DNA from: Anolis carolinensis | Lineage: Eukaryota | Assembly (NCBI RefSeq): GCF_035594765.1 | Contig: NW_026943822.1 | Coordinates: 21,475,769-21,539,768 of the forward strand | Direction: 5' to 3' | DNA: 64,000 bases | Shown here: positions 27,635 to 54,100 of the stretch, in pieces | Layout of the letters: every line of letters begins with the position of its first letter | Numbering within the stretch: the stretch's first letter is position 1 | Position numbers and translations under genes: made by a program | The notes under the pieces: generated by a model | Databases searched by the model: none | What the model saw: the letters and a program-made list of their open reading frames with translations, nothing else | Told to the model about the DNA's origin: nothing

Positions 27635-33982
<6,348 letters not shown>

Positions 33983-34385
33983 AAAACCATCAGGAAGGAA
34001 TAAAATTGTGTTTGGAATATATTTTTATTTCGTCTCCGATTCGTGACCCATCCCTGCATTTTCTTCTTCTTCTGTATCACCGTCGGTTTCTGTTCCATTT
34101 CAATTAAAACTCTCCTTGTCTCTGGTAATGGAGTTTGTGATATTTTTTTTTCCCCAAAAAAGACCAACTATTGGATTGACGTCTCCTTTCTTTCTTACCC
34201 TTTGGAATTGGGACTCATAGTACCTGCCTTACCTGGGCTGGATCTACACTGCCATATCATTGTATATGAGACAATAAATCAGTTATATATTTTTATATTT
34301 TATACATTTAATCTCCATGCGCACTCACCACCCATGGGATGTTTATTTATTCATCCTTACTAATAATAATAATAATAATAATAAT

Positions 34386-34593
34386 GTTGTCGAAGGCTTT
34401 CATGGCCGGGATCACAGGGTTGTTGTATGTCTTTCGGGCTGTGTGGCCATGTTCCAGAAGCATTCTCTCCTGACGTTTCGCCCACATCTATGGCAGGCAT
34501 CCTCAGAGGATGCCTGCCATAGATGTGGGCGAAACGTCAGGAGAGAATGCTTCTGGAACATGGCCACACAGCCCGAAAGACATACAACAACCC

Positions 34594-34658
<65 letters not shown>

Positions 34659-34860
34659 TTAATAATTGAGTTGTCGAAGGCTTTCATGGCCGGGATCACA
34701 GGGTTGTTGTATGTCTTTCGGGCTGTGTGGCCAATGCATTCTCTCCTGACGTTTCGCCCACATCTACCTCACAACCTCTGAGGATGCCTGCCATAGATGT
34801 GGGCGAAACGTCAGGAGAGAATGCTTCTGGAACATGGCCACACAGCCCGAAAGACATACA
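34386..34860. mobile_element. Two palindromic Penelope-like fragments separated by (TAA)n
   Basis: 34409-34593 is a near-perfect palindrome; second at 34670-34860. Confidence 0.75.
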
Positions 34861-35026
34861 TTAATAATTGACCTCCAAAATGCATATATATTCTTTTAGT
34901 ATTGGAGCACTTTCTATCATTATTTTATAACTTTTACTAATAGAAGTCCTTTTGCAAAGTTTTAAAGTTTGTGAACTGCTTTGAATCTCAAAGGCTCCTT
35001 TAAGAGGCTGCCTATGTTGTAGGGAA

Positions 35027-35185
35027 ACTACAGTTCCCAGCATGCTCTGCGACGCCTCTTGCCCAATGGCAGAGTGAGTTTCCTTTGCAAGGTTTGCTTT
35101 GCTGCAGGAAAAGCTTGAATTGTTCCTGCTTTGATTATACAACAAGCAGCCTTTGGTTATGCAAAAGCAGCACCTCGTGGCTCAG
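35027..35185 (+). promoter_or_regulatory. Probable NEIL1 promoter and non-coding exon 1
   Basis: ACTACAGTTCCCAGCATGC motif, CCAAT, then strong donor CAG|GTGAGT at 35185. Confidence 0.55.
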
Positions 35186-35254
35186 GTGAGTTCACTCCAA
35201 TCAATATTAAATCATATTGAAAAAATAAAATATTAATAAATTAATCAATACATA

Positions 35255-36148
35255 TGTGTTGTCGAAGGCTTTCATGGCCGGGATCACAGGGTTGTTGTAT
35301 GTCTTTCGGGCTGTCTGGCCATGTTCCAGAAGCATTCTCTCCTGACGTTTCGCCCACATCTATGGCAGGCATCCTCAGAGGTTGTGAGGTATGGAGAAAA
35401 CTAAGCAAAGAGGTTAATATATATCTGTGGAAAGTCTAGGGTGAGAGAGGTCAGTGTGAATGTTGTGTAGTTAATCACTTTAATTAGCATTGAAAAGCTT
35501 ATCTGCTGTCTTCTTCCTGCCTCTGGGGCATCCTTTGTTTAGAGTCGTTAACTGCCCTTGGTTGATTCATGTCTGGAAATCCTCTGTTTTCAGAGTATTG
35601 CTTTTTATTTACTGTTCTGATTTTTGAGTTTTTTAATACTGGTAGTATACAGAATACTATTTGAGAACACAAAAATGCTGGACCATTCTAACAACTATCA
35701 TGTCAGACTACACAGAGAAGCCATTGAAACCCACAAGCATGTGGACAACTTCAACAGAAAGGAAAAAACCATGAAAATGAACAAAATCTGGCTACCAGTA
35801 TTAAAAAACTCAAGAATCAGAACAGTAAATAAAAAGCAATACTCTGAAAACAGAGGATTTCCAGACATGAATCAACCAAGGGCAGTTAACGACTCTAAAC
35901 AAAGGATGCCCCAGAGGCAGGAAGAAGACAGCAGATAAGCTTTTCAATGCTAATTAAAGTGATTAACTACACAACATTCACACTGACCTCTCTCACCCTA
36001 GACTTTCCACAGATATATATTAACCTCTTTGCTTAGTTTTCTCCATACCTCACAACCTCTGAGGATGCCTGCCATAGATGTGGGCGAAACGTCAGGAGAG
36101 AATGCTTCTGGAGCATGGCCACACAGCCCGAAAGATATACAACAACCC
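35255..36148 (+). mobile_element. Penelope-like element: GIY-YIG ORF end between inverted terminal repeats
   Basis: ILFENTKMLDH..YHVRLHREAIETHKH..NFNR..WLPVLK is a typical PLE GIY-YIG C-terminus; ~355-bp inverted arms. Confidence 0.85.
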
Positions 36149-36519
36149 AATCACTACATAAATAGGGAGTTTAGTTTCCTCCTGCAAAAGCAAACCTCTG
36201 AGGATGTGCAAAGTTTCTTCTTCTCTCCGGCTTTACTCTCTCTCTGTTTTGTGCTATTGTGTATTAAGGGGCAGCTTTTAAATAATAATACAAATAATAA
36301 TTATAAAACCTTAGTTATATACTGTCCTATCTTCTCAAGGGACTCAGGGTGGTTTCCAACATGATAAAAACAAAACAGTACAATACGCGCGATAAAAACA
36401 GAACTATACAACAATTTAAAAATAATACAAGTAATCAAAATAAACACACAACATATGATCCAAACAATGAAAAATAAAACTAGTAACAATACTCCATAAT
36501 ATTATAATAGTATCATAAT

Positions 36520-36883
36520 AATAGAGCTTTTGAATAGCCCATAATATTAAAATTATGTCATAATAATAGAGCTTGTGTATCCATAGATTTAATAATAATA
36601 ATTTGAATATCCCATAATAATAATAATAATAAATCTCGTTTGCTGTGTCATACTATGTCTTTTTGTCAATAATAATAATAATAGAGCTTGAGTATCCACA
36701 GATTTAATAATAATGATTTAATAATAATAATAATAGAGTTTTTGAATATCCCATAATAATAATAAATTTCTTTTGCTGTGTCATACTATGTCTTTATGTC
36801 AATAATAATAATAATAATAGAGCTTGAGTATCCTCAGATTTAATAATAATAATAATAATAATAATAGAGTTTTTGAATATCCC

Positions 36884-36922
<39 letters not shown>

Positions 36923-37174
36923 CTCATTTGCTGTGTCATACTATGTCTTTGTGTCAATAATAATAATAATAGAGCTTGAGTATCCACAGATTTAATAATA
37001 ATGATTTAATAATAATAATAATAGAGTTTTTGAATATCCCATAATAATAATAATAATAATAAATTTCTTTTGCTGTGTCATACTATGTCTTTGTGTCAAT
37101 AATAATAATAATAGAGCTTGAGTATCCACAGATTTAATAATAATAATAATAATAATAGAGTTTTTGAATATCCC

Positions 37175-37216
<42 letters not shown>

Positions 37217-37375
37217 CTCGTTTGCTGTGTCATACTATGTCTTTTTGTCAATAATAATAATAATAATAATAAAACTATAATAATAATAGTATAGTAAAAC
37301 TAATAATAATAGTAAAACTATAATAATAGTAAAACTATAATAATAATAGTATAGAGCTTGAGTAGCCACAGATTT
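36520..37375. repeat. Composite array of R4 3' ends and (TAA)n
   Basis: TTTGCTGTGTCATACTATGTCTTTGTGTC alternating with AGAGCTTGAGTATCCACAGATTT and AGAGTTTTTGAATATCCC. Confidence 0.85.
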
Positions 37376-37998: not shown

Positions 37999-38341
37999 CT
38001 AGTTGTGCCTGGCCACGCGTTGCTGTGGCGTTGTCTAGTGCTGTCTGTATTTTATAGGCAGTGTGGAAGAGGCCTAAGTGAGGCCTAACTCTGCCTGTCC
38101 CCTGGGCTGAGTGGGTTGCTAGGAGACCAAGTGGGCAGAGCTTAGCCTTCTAACTGGCAGCAATTGGATAAAAACAATTATTCCTCTCCCTCTAATTAGG
38201 ACTTTATTTTTCTTTTCTTTTTGTTGTATCAACCTAGAGGCGTGGATGAGGGGTTGTGCTGCCAATTTTCGAGGTTGTGGGGTGTTTAGTTTTGTTGTTT
38301 TGTCGGTCGCCAGGATTCCACCACTGTTTTATATCTATAGA
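37999..38341 (-). mobile_element. Non-autonomous Helitron
   Basis: TC/CTAG termini, hairpin; ends 77 nt before the NEIL1 acceptor. Confidence 0.8.
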
Positions 38342-38420
38342 TTAGTATAGCATAATATTAGTATTATTAATGCTAATAAATTGATTTATTAACAAATCAA
38401 TGCGTCCTTGGTTTCTAGCT

Positions 38421-41400
38421 ATGCCGGAGGGTCCAGAGCTGTTCCTAACCAGCAGGTACATCAACGCGGTGTGCAGAGGACTGGTTTTTGCTGGGAAAGT
38501 GGAGAAGTCGGAGGTGAGCAAGAACCCGGCCGTGCCCTTTGAGAGCGATGGGTATGTGGTCTCCTCCACGTCTCGGGGGAAAGAGCTGAAGCTGACCCTC
38601 GCCCCGGTCAAGCGGGAAAAGGGCCACTCTCCCTCCGGAGACGGGATCCGTCCAAACCGAGACCCGAAAGCCATGGACGTCGTCTTCCGTTTCGGGATGT
38701 CCGGCGGCTTCAAACTGGTCCCGGTCGCCGAGATGCCCAAGCACGCCCACTTGCGCTTTTACTCGAAAGAGAAACCGGTCCGAGTCCTTTGCTACGTCGA
38801 CGTCCGGCGCTTCGGCCGATGGGAGGTGGACGGCGACTGGCAGGCGGAGCGAGGCCCCTGCGTGATGCTGGAGTATCAGAAGTTCAGGTGATAGATAAAG
38901 ATAGAAACAAGGAGATCTTATTTAATTACCTAATCACCGCAGCTAGAATGAACTTGGCGAAACTTTGGAAGGATAAGGAGATGCCGGGGATAAAAGGATG
39001 GATAAATAAAGTCTGGGAGATTATGAATATGGACAAATTAACATATTTACTACGAAATAATCATGGCAAACCAATGAAACAGACAAATTGGGAAACGGTC
39101 AAAAACTATCTGAGGGAAGAAAAATATAATGTGATTATTTAGAATAGAGAGTAAGACAATAAATATAAAATACCGAGTTAGGTGTTTTAAGATGAAACAA
39201 TAAAGTAGAGACACTAGAAAAAATGGTCCGAAGGACTACAACATGGTTTAGAATTAACTAAGAATTTCACTAGATACTGTGCAAAGATGGAAGTCTATGC
39301 TATTTTTAGTCGGTGCGGTGGTTGGATTTTCCTGTGTTTGTTTTGAGTTTATCTATTATTACTCTGTTATTATTCCAATTCCCCATTTCCCCCTCACTGT
39401 CTCGTGTTTATGTATTTTCGTTTTTTCTGCGTACTTTTTTTTTCTTTTTTTCCTGTCTTTCTTTTATTACTTTGATTGTTAAAAACTCCAATAAAAATTA
39501 AGTTGAAAAAAAAAAGAAGTTCAGGTGAGTTGCAATGCTAGGCTAGATCAATAGGAATCCAGGCCGTCCCTGAGTTACAAACATCTGACTTACGAATGAC
39601 TCCTAGTTAAGAACAGGGCTGGACTAGATGGCCTTCAGGGGTCCCTTCCAAACCTATGATACTATACCTATCTTGCATATATCTGTATCTATATCTATGT
39701 ATATACACACACATAAATAAGAATAATAATAATCGCAGTGATGTTGACCGGCTATATCTGCCTAGAAGATCAGGGGGCAGAGGACTCTTACAAGTAAAAC
39801 AAGCAGTCAAAGAAGAAGAACATGCTCTGGCAGAATATGTCAAGCAAAGTGAAGAACCTGCTTTGATTGAAGTCAAAAATCAGAAACTCCTCAAAACACA
39901 GCAGACAAAAAAAACTAGTACAAGAAAACCGCACTACAAACTAGAGCTGACAGCTGGCACAACAAAACATTGCATGGAAAGTTTCTTGACAAAATTGAAG
40001 GAAAAGCTGACAAGGAGAAGACCTGGCTCTGGCTCACGAATGGGACCCTGAAGAAGGAGACAGAAGGCCTGATCCTTGCAGCCCAGGAGCAAGACATCAG
40101 GACAAAGGCAATTAAGGCCAAGATCGAAAAATCATCTGATGACCCAAAATGCAGACTTTGCAAGGAAACCGACAAAACCATTGATCATATCCTCAGCTGC
40201 TGTAAGAAAATCGCACAGACAGACTACAAACAGAGGCACAACTATGTGGCCCAAATGATTCATTGGAACGTATGCCTCAAGTACCACCTCCCAGCAGCAA
40301 AGAACTGGTGGGATCACAAACCTGCAAAAGTATTGGAAAATGAGCACGCAAAGATACGGTGGGACTTCCGAATCCAGACTGACAAAGTTCTGGAACACAA
40401 CACACCAGACATCTCAGTTGTGGAAAAGAACAAGGTTTGGATCATTGATGTTGCCATCCCAGGTGACAGTCGCATTGACGAAAAACAACAGGAAAAACTC
40501 AGCCGCTATCAGGACCTCAAGATTGAACTTCAAAGACTCTGGCAGAAACCAGTGCAGGTGGTCCCGGTGGTGATGGGCACACTGGGTGCTGTGCCAAAAG
40601 ATCTCAGCCGGCATTTGGAAACAATAGACATTGACAAAATCACGATCTGCCAACTGCAAAAGGCCACCCTACTGGGATCTGCGCGCATCATCAGAAAATA
40701 CATCACACAGTCCTAGACACTTGGGAAGTGTTCGACTTGTGGTTTTGTGAAATGAAATCCAGCATATCTATCTTGTTTGCTGTGACATAATAAAATAATA
40801 ATAATAAATAATTTTGGTAGCCGTCTTGATCCGTTTCAGGGAGAATGTGCTGAGGAACCTCTCCGACAAAGCCTTTGAGAAGCCCATCTGCGAAGCTCTG
40901 CTGAATCAGAAATATTTCAACGGCATCGGCAACTATCTCCGGGCAGAAATCCTCCACCGGTGAGTCAATATTTGACCACGTTTCGAAAGTCAGAATCGCC
41001 TGGGTTGCTTTTGGAAACGTTGCTGTCCGATACCAAAGGCTCTTCATTTAGTGAAATAGTCACAGAAAAAACCAAACAAGGTTCCCAATGTTTCAGAAAA
41101 CCTTCTGCCAGGTTTTTAAGCAACTTATATATTTTTATGTTGTTTTATGCTGTTTTATACAATATTGTTATTGTATATACTCAAGTATAAGCCAACCCGA
41201 ATATAAGCCGAGGCACCTAATTTTACCACAAAAAAACTGAGAAAACATTGACTCCAATATAAGCCGAGGGTGGTAAATTTCAGAAATAAAAACAGATACC
41301 AATAAAATTACATTAATTGAGGCATCCGTAGGTTAAATGTTTTTGAATATTTACATCAAGCTCAAATTTAAGATAAGACTGTCCAACTCTGATCAAATCA

Positions 41401-42694: not shown

Positions 42695-43434
42695 CCCAAG
42701 TGTCCTAAACACTTGGAAAGTGTTCGACTTGTGATTTTGTGATACGAAATCCATCATATATATCTCGTTTGCTGTGTCTTTGTGTCAATAATAATAATAA
42801 TAATATTGCGACTTATGATTTTGTGATACGAAATCCATCATATATATCTCGTTTGCTGTGTCTTTGTGTCAATAATAATAATAATAATATTGCGACTTGT
42901 GATTTTGTGATATGAAATCCAGCATATATCTCATTTGCTGTGTCTTTGTGTCAATAATAATAATAATAATATTGCAACTTGTGATTTTGTGATACTAAAT
43001 CCAGCATATATCTCATTTGCTGTGTCTTTGTGTCAATAATAATAATAATATTGCAACTTGTGATTTTGTGATACGAAATCCAGCATATATCTCATTTGCT
43101 GTGTCTTTGTGTCAATAATAATAATAATATTGCAACTTGTGATTTTGTGATACGAAATCCAGCATATATCTCATTTGCTGTGTCTTTGTGTCAATAATAA
43201 TAATAATATTGCAACTTGTGATTTTGTGATACGAAATCCAGCATATATCTCATTTGCTGTGTCTTTGTGTCAATAATAATAATAATAATATTGCAACTTG
43301 TGATTTTGTGATACTAAATCCAGCATATATCTCATTTGCTGTGTCTTTGTGTCAATAATAATAATAATATTGCAACTTGTGATTTTGTGATACGAAATCC
43401 AGCATATATATCTCATTTGCTGTGTCTTTGTGTC

Positions 43435-43474
<40 letters not shown>

Positions 43475-43700
43475 TTGCAACTTGTGATTTTGTGATACGA
43501 AATCCAGCATATATCTCATTTGCTGTGTCTTTGTGTCAATAATAATAATAATAATATTGCAACTTGTGATTTTGTGATACTAAATCCAGCATATATCTCA
43601 TTTGCTGTGTCTTTGTGTCAATAATAATAATAATATTGCAACTTGTGATTTTGTGATACGAAATCCAGCATATATATCTCATTTGCTGTGTCTTTGTGTC

Positions 43701-43737
<37 letters not shown>

Positions 43738-44051
43738 TTGCAACTTGTGATTTTGTGATACGAAATCCGGCATATATCTCATTTGCTGTGTCTTTGTGTC
43801 AATAATAATAATATTGCGACTTGTGATTTTGTGATGCGAAATCCAGCATATATCTCATTTGCTGTGTCTTTGTGTCAATAATAATAATAATAATAATATT
43901 GCGACTTGTGATTTTGTGATACGAAATCCATCATATATATCTCGTTTGCTGTGTCTTTGTGTCAATAATAATAATATTGCGACTTGTGATTTTGTGATAC
44001 GAAATCCAGCATATATATCTCATTTGCTGTGTCATACTAGGCCTTTGCGTC

Positions 44052-44583: not shown

Positions 44584-47500
44584 GACACAACGACATTGTA
44601 TGACACAGCAAACAAGATAGATATGCTGGATTTCGTTTCACAAAATCACAAGTCAAACACTTCCCAAGTGTCTAGGACTGTGTGATGTATTTTCGGATGA
44701 TGCGTGCAGATCCCAGTAAGGTGGCCTTTTGCAGTTGGCAGATCGTAATTTTGTCAATGTCTATTGTTTCCAAATGCCGGCTGAGATCTTTTGGCACGGC
44801 ACCCAGTGTGCCCATCACCATTGGGACCACCTGCACTGGTTTCTGCCAGAGTCTTTGAAGTTCAATCTTAAGGTCCTGATAGCGGCTGAGTTTTTCCTGT
44901 TGTTTTTCTTCAATGCGACTGTCACCTGGGATGGCAACATCAATGATCCAAATCTTGTTCTTTTCCACAACTGTGATGTCTGGTGTGTTGTGTTCCAGAA
45001 CTTTGTCAGTCTGGATTCGGAAGTCCCACAGTATCTTTGCGTGTTCATTTTCCACAACCTTTGCAGGTTTGTGATCCCACCAGTTCTTAACTGCAGGGAG
45101 GTGATACTTGAGGCATAGGTTCCAATGAATCATTTGGGCCACATAGTTGTGCCTCTGTTTGTAGTCTGTCTGTGCAATTTTCTTACAGCAGCTGAGGATA
45201 TGATCAATGGTTTCATCGGTTTCCTTGCACAGTCTTGCACCCTTGCACAATAATAATAATAATTATTATTATTATTACAGTGTAGATACATCCTTGTGTT
45301 TTAACATTCGCTCTTGTTTTCTCCCCAGACAGCGGCAAAGGTTACTATTCGGATCACCCGGAGGACCACACGGCCTTTGAAAAGTGGCTTCAGTGCTATT
45401 TCGTCCCAGGCATGAAATCCCTCAGCGATTCAAATGGCAGGACCATCTGGTTTGAGGTCAGAACAGAATGAGGCAGATAAATATTTTGGGGAAATCATGA
45501 AGCTGCAGTGTGTGGGGTCCCAATTTATTATTTAAAGTCATTAAGGCTGCATCTACACTGGGGAATGAATGCAGTTTGATACCACTTTAACTGCCATGGC
45601 TTAATACTGTAAGAACTTCCACATTTGCATAAGCTGCGAGTATGCAACTATAAGTGAGCCCATCAATCGTGTGTTGTTTACAATCTAGCGTCGGCAAGTA
45701 GCATCTCAAGCGGCCACTGTGCAAGTCCTACTTTTCTGAGTAAATAGGCTATTTACTATAAATTGTAATTTTTTAATGATTTATTGAAAAACCGCGAAAA
45801 AACAAGTCCGCGAAAAGCGAACTGCAAAGTAGCGAGGGAACACTGTATATCAATTCTGGAGTAGGCAGATTCTCAGGATTTGTACCACTATTGGTGTGGT
45901 AGGTTCCCAGCAATAAAATATTAATTGTATATGGCTTTTTTTTGCCTTGATCATATTCCCAAAATAAGAGGGTGGAGAAATGTGATAATAGATAAATGAT
46001 GTGTAGGTATGTTTGTATGTATTAAATGTGCAAGCTACTCACAACACAAAATATAAGATAATATTAATAAAAATATATATGTAAAAAAATATTATTGGTG
46101 TGATAGGTTCCCAGCATTGAAATACTAATTGTATATGGCTTTCTTTTGCCCTGATCATATTCCCAAAATAAGAGGGTGGAGAAATGTGATAATAGATAAA
46201 TGATGTGTAGGTATGTTTGTATGTACTAAATGTGCAAGCTACTCACAACACGAAATATAAGATAATATTAATAAAAATATATATTTTAAAAATTATTATT
46301 GGTGTGATAGGTTCCCAGCATTGAAATATTAATTGTATATGGCTTTCTTTTGCCCTGATCATATTCCCAAAATAAGAGGGTGGAGAAATGTGATAATAGA
46401 TAAATGATGTGTAGGTATGTTTGTATGTATTAAATGTGCAAGCTACTCACAACACAAAATATAATAATATTAATTTAAAAATATTTTTAAAAATATCATT
46501 GGTGTGATAGGTTCCCAGCATTGAAATATTAATTGTATATGGCTTTCTTTTGCCCTGATCATATTCCCAAATTTGCTTTCCTTCCCATTATAGGGGGATC
46601 CTGGACCGATGGCCCCAAAAGGTGAGCATCAGATTTCCATCCTTCTCAACACTTTCCTAAATTATTTTCTAAATGTAGATCAGGGTAGGTAATGTGTAAC
46701 TATGGGGCCTGAGCTGCTGAACTTGCTGACCGAAAGGTCAGCAGTTCGAATCCAGGGAGCAGGGTGAGCTCCTGCTGTTAGCCCCAACTCCTGCCAACCT
46801 AGCAATTCGAAAACATGCAAATGTGAGTAGATCAATAGGGAAGGTAAAAGCGCTCCATGCAGTCATGCCAGTGGCCACATGACCTTGGAGGTGTCTACGG
46901 ACAACGCCGGCTCTTCGGCTTAGAAATGGAGATGAGCACCAACCCCCAGAGTCAGACACGACTGGGCTTCGTGTCAGGGGAAACCTTTACTTTTACCTTA
47001 ATGTGTAACTTAGGGATCCCAAAGTTTGTTTCAATAGACCTCAACTCCCTGGCAAAATAGAACAATACATTATCTCTCATCTAGAAGTGGCAATTCACCT
47101 TGTAAAAGGATGCATGCATTGCTCGACATTAAAAAAAAATATTCATTTTTCCATATCCAAAATGAACTTTCAGCTATTTCTGCTCCTGTTGTGTCTCTTT
47201 CTTGGGTATTTTTGCAGCCTTCAAACAATCTCAGTGCCTGTTTGGAAGTCTATCTATTACAAGTCTGGAACAAAACAGCATTATTTTGAGCTGATTCTAA
47301 CAAAATGATATGTTTTTTCATATCAGGAGATAAACCGCGCAAGAAACGGTTGCAGGTCAAAGCGATTCCTGAAGTGTCAAAGGAGAAGCCAGGCAGGAAA
47401 CGGCTGCAAGTTAAAAACGATCCATTAAGTCCCAAGGTAATTAGATTGGTGGAGTGCGGCTTGATGGCTCACCCATAGCCTACATTTTCGCTTGATATGG

Positions 47501-51183: not shown

Positions 51184-54100
51184 AACTTTATTTATATACC
51201 GCCCTATCTCCCGGATGGGACTCAGGGCGGTTTCCAATCATAAAAACAACACAAACATTACATAGCAACATAATAACACAGTATTAAGCAAAATAAAATA
51301 ATACAATTATAGCAATAAATAACACTTACATGACCTGATCAAGGGGACGGGAACCATAAACCCAATATATTAAAATGTATCATAATATAAATACTGCAAA
51401 TAAATAAATGAATAAATAAACTACCTACATACCCAATAGTTAAGGATCATGGGCTCTGTAGTCCACTAGAACTACAAGCATGTGATGAACCATGGGCCTT
51501 GTAGTCCTGCTCAGGACATTGTAATCCCTGATGAAGATGAAAACTTGGGTTTTTTACCTTCCCAGTCTGAACTGGATTCCTCTCAGCCAGATCCTTCCCA
51601 GGCAGATCTGGAAACCTTGCACCTGCAAGAAAGTTGTGCCCCAGAAGTATGTCAAACAACCCCAGAGCCTACTTCTCCCGTGTTCTTGCGCCGGGAGTTT
51701 TGTAAACAACAGAGAAGTTTGGATTCAGCTTCGCGCAGGAGTGCGAGGATAGCAGCTAAGAATGTTGCCAATTAACATTGGTTCTCGTGAGAATCTTTAA
51801 GGAGTTTAACATCTGGTCTCAGAGTTTAGCTTTCGTTTCTGATTCCCAGAGAACCGCTTTGGTGAGAAAGTTGGACTCTATATAGGTGTTTTGCCCGCGT
51901 AGCAACTTCGCGGAGTCAATTCGTCAGCCTACGGAGCGAGTTGTGTCTGGACAGCGCGCTCCGATTCAAGCCTCGCTTCAGCTCAAGCCTTGCCTTGCTA
52001 TCCAGCCTTCGCCTTGCTTCCCAGCCTTTGTTTACCGACGGACTTTGCCTTGTTTCCCAGGACTAATCCTTGCCTTGTTTCACGGATTTTACCAAGTTAT
52101 TCCACGGACCTTGTTCTTGTTCTTAGTTACCTTGTTCCACGTTCAAGCCTTGTTTCAAGTATCAAGTTATTTCCTAGCCACGCTCAAGTTTTATGGACTA
52201 AGGACCTTGTCATCTCCCCTCACTTTGCTTGGCAAAGTGAGTGTTTCGGTTATTGGATTACAACTTTGGACCTTAATATTTCTTATTGGACATTGCTTTT
52301 TTGGACTAATTCTGACCTTTCCTGAAGGGTCTAATTCTGGACTATTTTCTATACTTGTTTTTATTAACTTTATATATTCCTTCAATAAAGATATTAGTTA
52401 GATTCTGGCCTCTGTGTATGGTTATTGGTGCCTCTGCCGCCTGGGTCGTGACAGTTTGACTCCGCCACCCATAAGCACCAACTAACCGAGGCCAGGATGT
52501 CTACCGGAGCCGCGCCGGCTGGACAGCCGCTCAGCTACACCATCAGCAAGGACGAAGTGGACCGCATCCGTGACAGACTCAACGCGCAGGATGGAGAAAT
52601 AAAAGGGTTGAGGGAGCGCGGAGTTCGCCTCCCGGCCATGGCGTTGCCTACCAAGTTTTCTGGAGAAGCTGCTAAGGTTCATGTTTTCCGCCGCCAATGT
52701 CAAGCTTATCTAGAGGCCCGTGATGCCGAGTTTCCCCAAGAAGACATCAAGGTGGCGTGGGTCTACAGTCTTCTAGACGGACCAGCGGCTAGCTGGGCGA
52801 CGGCCCTGTTTGATCAAGCCTCCCCCCACCTAAGTTCAGCACAACGCTTCTTGGATCACCTTAAGGAGACCTGGGGAATCGAGGACAATTTGGAGGCAGC
52901 CGGTCACAAACTCCGGCGCCTCCTTCAAGGAGACAGACCCATGTCTCAGTACATAGCCGAGTTCCGCGTGCTGGCCCACAACACCGGCTGGAACGATGTA
53001 GCCCTCAGAGGACAATTTCGGGAGGGTCTCAACATTGAAATGCTGGAAGAAATCTCCAAGGTGGATCCTCCCCAGACCCTCGAGGCACTCATTGATCAAT
53101 GTTTACGGGCTGAAGTCATGATTGCCAACAGGAAACAATGGGTTCGAGGCCAGGGCGGTAGAGCCGGGGCAAAACCCCCCGCTCCCGCCAGTGTTCAGCC
53201 ACGTCCGGTGTGGAGACCCCCACCGCCAACCCCATACCCCAGAGGAGGCGAGGAGGTGCCGATGCAGTTGGGCAATGTGCGTCCCAGACTAGATGCCGCC
53301 GAGAAGGCCCGTCGTCAACGCTTGAACCTCTGCTGGTACTGCGGGAACGGGGGCCACTTCGCCAGAGAGTGCCCAGCCAAAGGGAAGCCTGCCGCCCGTC
53401 TTGCGGCGGCGTCCTCCACGGAGTCGAAGGCGTCTGAGCCGACTGGCACACAGCCGGCGGGGGAAGCCAACGACCGGGTGTAGAGAGGCTCGCCAACCCG
53501 GTCAAAAAATCCATCCAAGAGCCGCCAACCGGGGTCCTGTTCCTTCTCGTGGTCACATTATGGTCAGCAAAAAGGGGACCCGTCATGATCCACGCCATGA
53601 TAGACTCTGGAGCTACCAACAATTTCATCGATAGAGAGTATGCCGACTCTCTGGGATTACAATATCATGATTTCAAGAATGCCCGTGTGGTGCAAGCCAT
53701 AGACGGCCGCCCCCTCAAGACGGGCCCCGTAAGCCAGTGGTCGGAACCCACCAGGATGTGGATAAGGGAACATATGGAAGAGATTTCCTTCTTTGTTACC
53801 GAGGTTCCCCATTTCCCTGTGATTTTGGGAATTCCATGGCTGACACTCCACGACCCTAACATCTCCTGGTCCAACAGAGAACTGCAGTTTGCTTCACCGT
53901 ACTGCCAAAACCATTGCCTCGTAGCCAAGGTATGCCATGCCACAGACTCCGAGCCCATCATCACCTTGCCAAAGAAGTACTCCGAGTATTGGGATGTATT
54001 CAATGAGAAAGAAGCCGAAAAATTACCCCCACATAGACCTTATGACTGTGCCATTGACTTGGTGGAGGGGGCCCCGATCCCGCGAGGGCATCTCTACTCC

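Follow-up and report, generated by a model that had tools for sequence, protein, structure and literature searches.

A polymorphic, 5'-truncated L1 duplicates the splice donor of the first coding exon of NEIL1 in Anolis carolinensis

Introduction

Retrotransposon insertions at an exon boundary which duplicate the splice site are of a known kind, represented by the merle allele of the dog and by insertions in NF1. In merle (PMC7349775), an antisense SINE with a target site duplication (TSD) of 15 bp segregates at the boundary between intron 10 and exon 11 of PMEL, where it affects an acceptor, is tuned by the length of its poly(T) and causes a visible phenotype. The insertion described here, in NEIL1 of Anolis carolinensis, is likewise a non-LTR insertion at a boundary with two competing splice sites. 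However, it is a sense L1 at a donor, the rival site was not seen in use and it has no known phenotype. The L1-endonuclease-dependent insertions of NF1 (PMC3219598) share with it a TSD in the range of 7–20 bp. They start from a nick at an AA/TTTT-like site (the consensus being TTTT/AA), which the inferred nick in NEIL1 resembles in part, and some of them lie at splice sites. Those are de novo disease alleles which all disturb splicing, through exon skipping or cryptic sites, whereas normal splicing continues in a carrier of the NEIL1 insertion.

Polymorphic L1s have been described in Anolis carolinensis itself (PMC5389967) and are, by protein match, of the same clade and species. They resemble the NEIL1 insert in being 5'-truncated with an intact 3' end and in being polymorphic for presence or absence. 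Truncated L1s are abundant there and LINE polymorphisms in the anole are mostly rare, whereas the NEIL1 insert was placed on an inferred three of the four chromosomes of the two DNA-like runs examined, is present in the window and lies at the donor of a coding exon. The terms NEIL1, exon, intron and splic- are absent from the main text of PMC5389967, and no paper on this NEIL1 L1 locus was found in a literature search that fell short of most subscription papers.

Two further systems bear on the possible consequences of such an insertion. In human tumours, intronic polyadenylation is promoted by variants that weaken donors, and the effect is greater where the intron is AT-rich (PMC8501991). A U1 site predicted to be weakened, an AT-rich intron and downstream poly(A) signals are shared with NEIL1, although the tumour cases are point mutations, while in NEIL1 a single insertion imports the signals and is predicted to weaken the donor, and the 3' end is predicted. 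The AGGT model of intron gain (PMC3443670) shares the duplication of AG/GT on both sides of an insert that is formally removable without trace. It differs in that the L1 landed in NEIL1 on a donor already present, is removed together with the host intron and is followed by a second AG that has no pyrimidine tract. No paper that connects recursive splicing with transposable elements and TSDs was found in a search with most subscription papers outside its coverage.

Materials and Methods

The window, that is, the whole stretch of DNA which was analysed (64 kb of Anolis carolinensis), supplies all positions given below. Sequencing runs were searched with the query 38340–38891, which is free of L1 sequence. 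The search listed 24 runs, all of them assembled contigs and not raw reads, and the locus was contained in 20; two of the eight DNA-like and five of the twelve RNA-like runs were examined. As none of the 20 is recorded as RNA, RNA-like status was judged by spliced joints in the contigs. Run X1, labelled 'RNA?', was treated as DNA-like because a single contig spans intron and exon without a splice joint. Missing cover of the L1 in X9, X12, X14 and X18, and beyond 39431 in X17, was not counted as absence.

Results

The gene at the locus was identified as NEIL1 by protein search, with the exon 38421–38887 matching human NEIL1 at an E value of 8e-52. This exon encodes the N-terminal glycosylase (Fpg/Nei N-terminal) domain and shows 100% identity with the database NEIL1 protein of Anolis carolinensis, P0004. 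A nine-exon model with canonical splice sites yields a protein of 437 aa, and residues 1–330 of P0004 are identical to the spliced model, including across the 38887–40840 junction. The H2TH domain occupies residues 166–211 of P0004 and the Neil1-DNA_bind domain residues 263–301. P0004 (335 aa) departs from the window frame at residue 331 and then stops (window 47327–47436), in a manner resembling a one-base loss in its source. The window frame reaches 437 aa, a length which matches most full-length reptile NEIL1 orthologues among the matches listed. Judging from these sequences, the older annotation P0004 was likely truncated through an assembly error.

A 5' untranslated exon at ~35140–35185 is joined by splicing to 38419. 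By-eye comparison showed that the X9 contig lacks ~13 bases of this exon which are present in the window and in X18, likely an indel polymorphism. Single-base differences were also observed: 38614 G>A (Arg65 to Gln), for which X2 is heterozygous; a silent change at 38765, where C was found in seven of seven runs examined and the window base may be a private variant or an error; and 40900 G>T, also silent, found in X9 and X17, the X12 contig stopping just short of this position. In the GKGY motif, the lysine (model residue 254) falls within a predicted intron–exon hairpin at 45290–45375, whose energy of −15.6 kcal/mol is a figure without shuffle control. The human counterpart of this lysine, K242, is recoded by ADAR.

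The end of the first coding exon is part of an exact 14-nt direct repeat whose copies are spaced by 637 nt and enclose an L1. The features concerned are as follows (a slash within a donor marks the exon–intron boundary; the source of each assignment is given in brackets).

38419..38887, + strand: first coding exon of NEIL1 (start codon ATG, 38421; RNA contigs begin at 38417–38419 and join 38887 to 40840)
38878..38891, + strand: 5' copy of the TSD, comprising the last 10 exon bases and intron positions +1 to +4 (repeat search)
38885..38893, + strand: proximal donor CAG/GTGATA, exon end at 38887 (RNA joints to 40840)
38889..38891, + strand: in-frame TGA, met by any read-through (translation)
38892..39514, + strand: 5'-truncated sense L1 of 623 bp, polymorphic (TSD, protein match and run contigs)
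38892..39142, + strand: final 83 codons of L1 ORF2 with its stop (75 of 83 residues as in the C-terminus of P0001)
39143..39505, + strand: L1 3' UTR, 363 nt (AATAAA at 39158, 39199 and 39490; U-rich, AG-free stretch at 39348–39500)
39506..39514, + strand: L1 poly(A) tail of 9 A (run X2 has one extra A)
39515..39528, + strand: 3' copy of the TSD (repeat search; the X1 empty-site contig enters it from 38877)
39522..39530, + strand: displaced original donor CAG/GTGAGT, boundary between 39524 and 39525 (no junction from this donor among the RNA-like runs examined)
40840..40959, + strand: following NEIL1 exon, start of H2TH (RNA contig joints; spliced model against P0004)

The 14-mer was found at these two places only on both strands of the 64-kb window, in which a given 14-mer is expected ~2e-4 times by chance under equal base frequencies. 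An earlier reading made from the sequence alone had claimed a sense L1 in NEIL1, with a TSD across the exon–intron boundary and the original AG/GTGAGT lying 637 nt downstream of a proximal AG/GTGATA. The repeat proved exact at 38878–38891 and 39515–39528, the two sites were located at 39524 and 38887, and the identity of gene and element was confirmed by the NEIL1 protein matches and by the match of the ORF2 tail to P0001. The AATAAA at 39490 is likewise present.

The ORF2 piece is 90% identical to P0001, an anole reverse transcriptase with an RVT_1 domain which aligns over 6–1010 with human LINE-1 ORF2p (E 6.7e-129); R2 proteins match P0001 at 7.7e-23 or weaker. Truncation has removed ORF1 and the APE endonuclease from the insert. 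Pfam gave no match for the 82-aa ORF2 piece, and a second copy of the insert was not found in the window, where the search returned one weak 36-nt match. The insert contains four AATAAA motifs, at 39005 (within ORF2), 39158, 39199 and 39490, which lie 120–610 nt from the donor. At the inferred nick the bottom strand reads TTCT/GA, agreeing with four of the six positions of TTTT/AA, a consensus which is human, and the 14-bp TSD falls within the 7–20 bp reported for L1 in PMC3219598. The insert combines the traits of an L1-type insertion, namely 5' truncation together with an intact 3' UTR, a poly(A) signal and an A tail. We infer that this sense element arose by target-primed reverse transcription at a nick 10 bases into the exon.

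The duplication restored the exon end and donor positions −3 to +4; the changes are at +5 and +6 only, which are now L1 letters and turn GTGAGT into GTGATA. The CAG of the displaced donor is at the same time a formal AG/GT acceptor, with AG/GT standing at both ends of the insert. Reading past 38887 meets the TGA at 38889–38891 and gives a product of 156 aa which terminates upstream of H2TH and Neil1-DNA_bind, so that the immediate stop and the short product lacking H2TH that had been foreseen for read-through agree with the translation and with the domain positions of P0004. This TGA lies inside the duplicated target, and the empty allele therefore carries it too. The idea that the L1 creates the stop was ruled out, since the TGA belongs to the target site.

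The weakening of the proximal donor that had been claimed was borne out as a prediction only: predicted U1 pairing was −12.2 kcal/mol for the original donor against −8.2 kcal/mol for the proximal one, on a crude score of pairing with the U1 5' end, which is not MaxEntScan. The displaced donor has the strongest predicted pairing among the nine coding-region donor sites scored. The seven downstream NEIL1 donors range from −5.5 to −9.6 kcal/mol; two of them (−5.5 and −6.6 kcal/mol) are surpassed by the proximal donor and one likewise has no G at +5. Seven contiguous predicted U1 pairs are retained at the proximal donor. Donor positions −1 and +5 compensate for each other. With its pairing inside the range of NEIL1's own donors and a perfect exonic CAG to help, the proximal donor is thus predicted to be weaker yet usable.

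Both forms of the locus were found in the DNA-like runs. The X1 contig of the exon has a depth of 20.7 and breaks off at 38891, the final base of the TSD, where the assembly forks into an L1 contig (38862–38948, depth 12.2) and an empty site in which the 16 letters 38862–38877 are joined to 39515 onward. A simulated heterozygote with k=31 gave the same stop at 38891 and the same start at 38862 for both branches. The empty-site contig is of 91 nt in X1 against 46 in the simulation, its left anchor of 30 letters is one below the bridging rule, and the filled 3' junction is absent among the X1 contigs. In X2 this junction is present and the sequence runs unbranched from 38615 to 38948 into the L1 at a depth of 10.5, a value close to the combined depth of both alleles at the heterozygous SNP 38614. 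X2 is likely an L1/L1 homozygote; X1 could be a heterozygote or a pool, and both alleles exist either way. Taken together, the L1 allele is on an inferred three of the four chromosomes of X1 and X2, in addition to the window itself. The contigs give no linkage of the L1 to the SNPs 38614 and 40900. A fixed NEIL1 paralogue as the origin of the empty site was ruled out, there being no fork at 38891 in X2. The insertion at the NEIL1 donor is polymorphic in Anolis carolinensis, as the sequence-only reading had suspected, X1 containing the empty site alongside the filled 5' junction, and X2 the filled form only.

The 38887–40840 junction was present in all five RNA-like runs examined (four studies). 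X9 and X17 show it as a joint, whereas in X12, X14 and X18 it takes the form of loose ends of exon 3. In simulation, the spliced contig is broken at 40859 by an isoform that uses the distal donor and at 40864 by full retention. Neither break was seen in any of the five runs, nor was a 39524–40840 junction, the carrier X17 included, in contigs that can drop rare forms. The suggested use of the distal donor at 39524 was therefore not borne out. A distal-donor transcript would have its stop 633 nt before its junction, which would likely make the message a target of nonsense-mediated decay (NMD) and leave little of the 156-aa protein; low use of this donor may therefore have escaped notice.

Run X17 contains, besides a spliced contig of depth 13.4, a read-through contig (38859–39037, depth 9.33) with 33 letters before the insert and 146 within the L1. 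It makes up 41% of the summed contig depth, contig depth being a poor measure of level. At the acceptors 38419 and 40840, as at the donor 40959, X17 shows no branch, and adjacent bin depths correspond to exon-only values. Since branches would also be expected at these neighbouring sites from DNA or general nascent RNA, the leak looks specific to the proximal donor and does not rejoin exon 3. X17 thus carries the L1 allele and shows normal splicing alongside a leak. It should also be noted that position 40900 is T in the spliced contig of X17 while the L1-bearing window has G, so that the spliced RNA could stem largely from another haplotype. Further pieces, at 39008–39213 and, after a gap, at 39266–39431, may come from other L1 copies. 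One of these contigs ends at 39213, 9 nt past an AATAAA, in this single run; as a 3' end it was set aside for that reason. An A>G difference at 38961 occurs in the X17 read-through contig only and represents either an allele or A-to-I editing. The leak into the L1 that had been predicted is thus seen as an exon-to-L1 contig in one of five runs, while contigs do not reveal its strand, its level or its end, which had been proposed to lie at the AATAAA of 39490.

The NEIL1 intron with the L1 insertion also holds a second, unrelated 5'-truncated LINE (39840–40815, + strand), presumably of the R4/Dong type, which has an open frame of 265 aa (39919–40713; weak zf-RVT match, no PDB match) and ends in TAA repeats 25 nt upstream of the acceptor. 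Copies ~95% identical to it lie at 479–1449, 32299–33069 and 44599–45235, and head-to-tail arrays with units of ~80 bp, one of the arrays within a NEIL1 intron, are made of its 3' tail and TAA repeats (42700–44050 and 36620–37250). A very high-copy short repeat at ~39560–39670 begins ~35 nt past the displaced donor and has an X1 contig depth ~2000 times that of single copy. Upstream of NEIL1, and on its strand, a putatively COMMD4-like gene has its last exons at 33301–33983, ~1.1 kb ahead of the NEIL1 5' untranslated exon. Palindromic repeats at 33540–36150 look, presumably, Penelope-like, and by eye an element start at ~51450–53000 with a gag-like frame from ~52497 was assumed to be LTR-retrotransposon-like.

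Discussion

It is suggested, with somewhat better than even confidence, that the filled form is a tolerated, mildly leaky allele whose leak ends within the L1. The truncated L1 would have been inserted 10 bases inside the exon end by target-primed reverse transcription from the bottom-strand nick TTCT/GA, and the 14-bp duplication would have restored the exon with a weaker donor, at which most transcripts are likely still spliced correctly, the loss of the U1 pairs at +5 and +6 being offset by the perfect exonic CAG. A likely minority of transcripts would leak into the L1 and is predicted to end at one of its AATAAA signals, as weaker U1 protection together with four imported signals would favour intronic polyadenylation. 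The displaced strong donor would be outcompeted because it would define an exon of 1.1 kb, and NMD would remove whatever it produced.

A stronger effect is rather doubtful but carries some weight. In this case ~40% or more of the transcripts of the L1 allele would remain unspliced and be polyadenylated in the L1 to give a stable message for the 156-aa product, and the clean runs would be mostly from non-carriers. Such a hypomorph is consistent with X17, where the read-through depth of 9.33 against 13.4 spliced is confined to the proximal donor and where the T at 40900 of the spliced contig differs from the L1 haplotype of the window. X14, from the same study, is unbranched at higher depth, as expected of a non-carrier. 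The four AATAAA of the insert and the precedent in PMC8501991 point the same way. However, read-through was found in one run only, with a single depth figure per contig, and the proximal donor still has its seven contiguous U1 pairs by prediction. In addition, X2 looks homozygous and the window carries the allele, so that carriers are expected among the other four RNA-like runs: the chance that all four clean runs are non-carriers is 0.007–0.055 at an allele frequency like that of X1 and X2 and 0.43 at a frequency of 0.1, independent samples being assumed in both cases. Mice in which Neil1 is knocked out are viable, though they develop metabolic syndrome (PMC10546947), which makes viable homozygotes a weak argument against a hypomorph, and even a strong allele could segregate. 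The hypomorphic allele first proposed for this locus is accordingly possible: the outcome in which essentially all transcripts use 38887, which would speak against it, fits four of the five RNA-like runs, and carrier status is established for X17 alone.

It is unlikely that the insertion is a neutral scar, with a proximal donor equal to the original and an X17 contig that reflects DNA, or unspliced nascent RNA of an intron which is slow to be removed on the empty allele as well. One unbranched spliced contig in four of five RNA-like runs and a proximal donor energy inside NEIL1's own range would suit this explanation, but the three neighbouring splice sites in X17 show no branch, unlike DNA or general nascent RNA.

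Removal in two steps is very improbable. The duplicated CAG would serve as an acceptor, the L1 would be excised first and CAG/GTGAGT would be re-formed as a recursive site born of the TSD. The geometry is exact, with AG/GT at both ends as in the AGGT intron-gain model (PMC3443670), the U-rich, AG-free stretch 39348–39500 contains branch-like motifs, and the resulting mRNA would be identical to the one observed; in sequence, the splicing intermediate would equal the empty allele. Against this, the pyrimidine fraction before the AG is 0.20, compared with 0.60–0.85 at nine of nine real NEIL1 acceptors, and the candidate acceptor is preceded by AGs at 39501, 39515 and 39518, of which the first would yield a 22-nt exon with an immediate stop. 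That much of the splicing goes through the displaced donor at 39524, giving the truncated product, is the least credible of these explanations, as neither a 39524–40840 junction nor a 40859 break was found in any of the five RNA-like runs including X17, despite the highest predicted U1 pairing (−12.2 kcal/mol) and the possibility that NMD and assembler clean-up mask its use.

On the preferred reading of a tolerated, mildly leaky allele, the insertion is an ordinary L1 polymorphism in an unusual place. If removal in two steps were true, a transposon-born recursive site would have been caught while still polymorphic, in an allele which heals itself. Should the leak prove large, a model lizard would be segregating a common loss-of-function allele of a glycosylase of base excision repair, and the locus would exemplify how a short LINE can lower fitness by way of host RNA processing; selection against truncated anole LINEs has been discussed in terms of ectopic recombination (PMC5389967). 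The locus also forms a natural experiment: both alleles segregate, likely with homozygotes, and they differ only at +5 and +6 and in the imported poly(A) signals, so that U1 pairing, intronic polyadenylation and the choice between a proximal and a distal donor may be compared in a living vertebrate.
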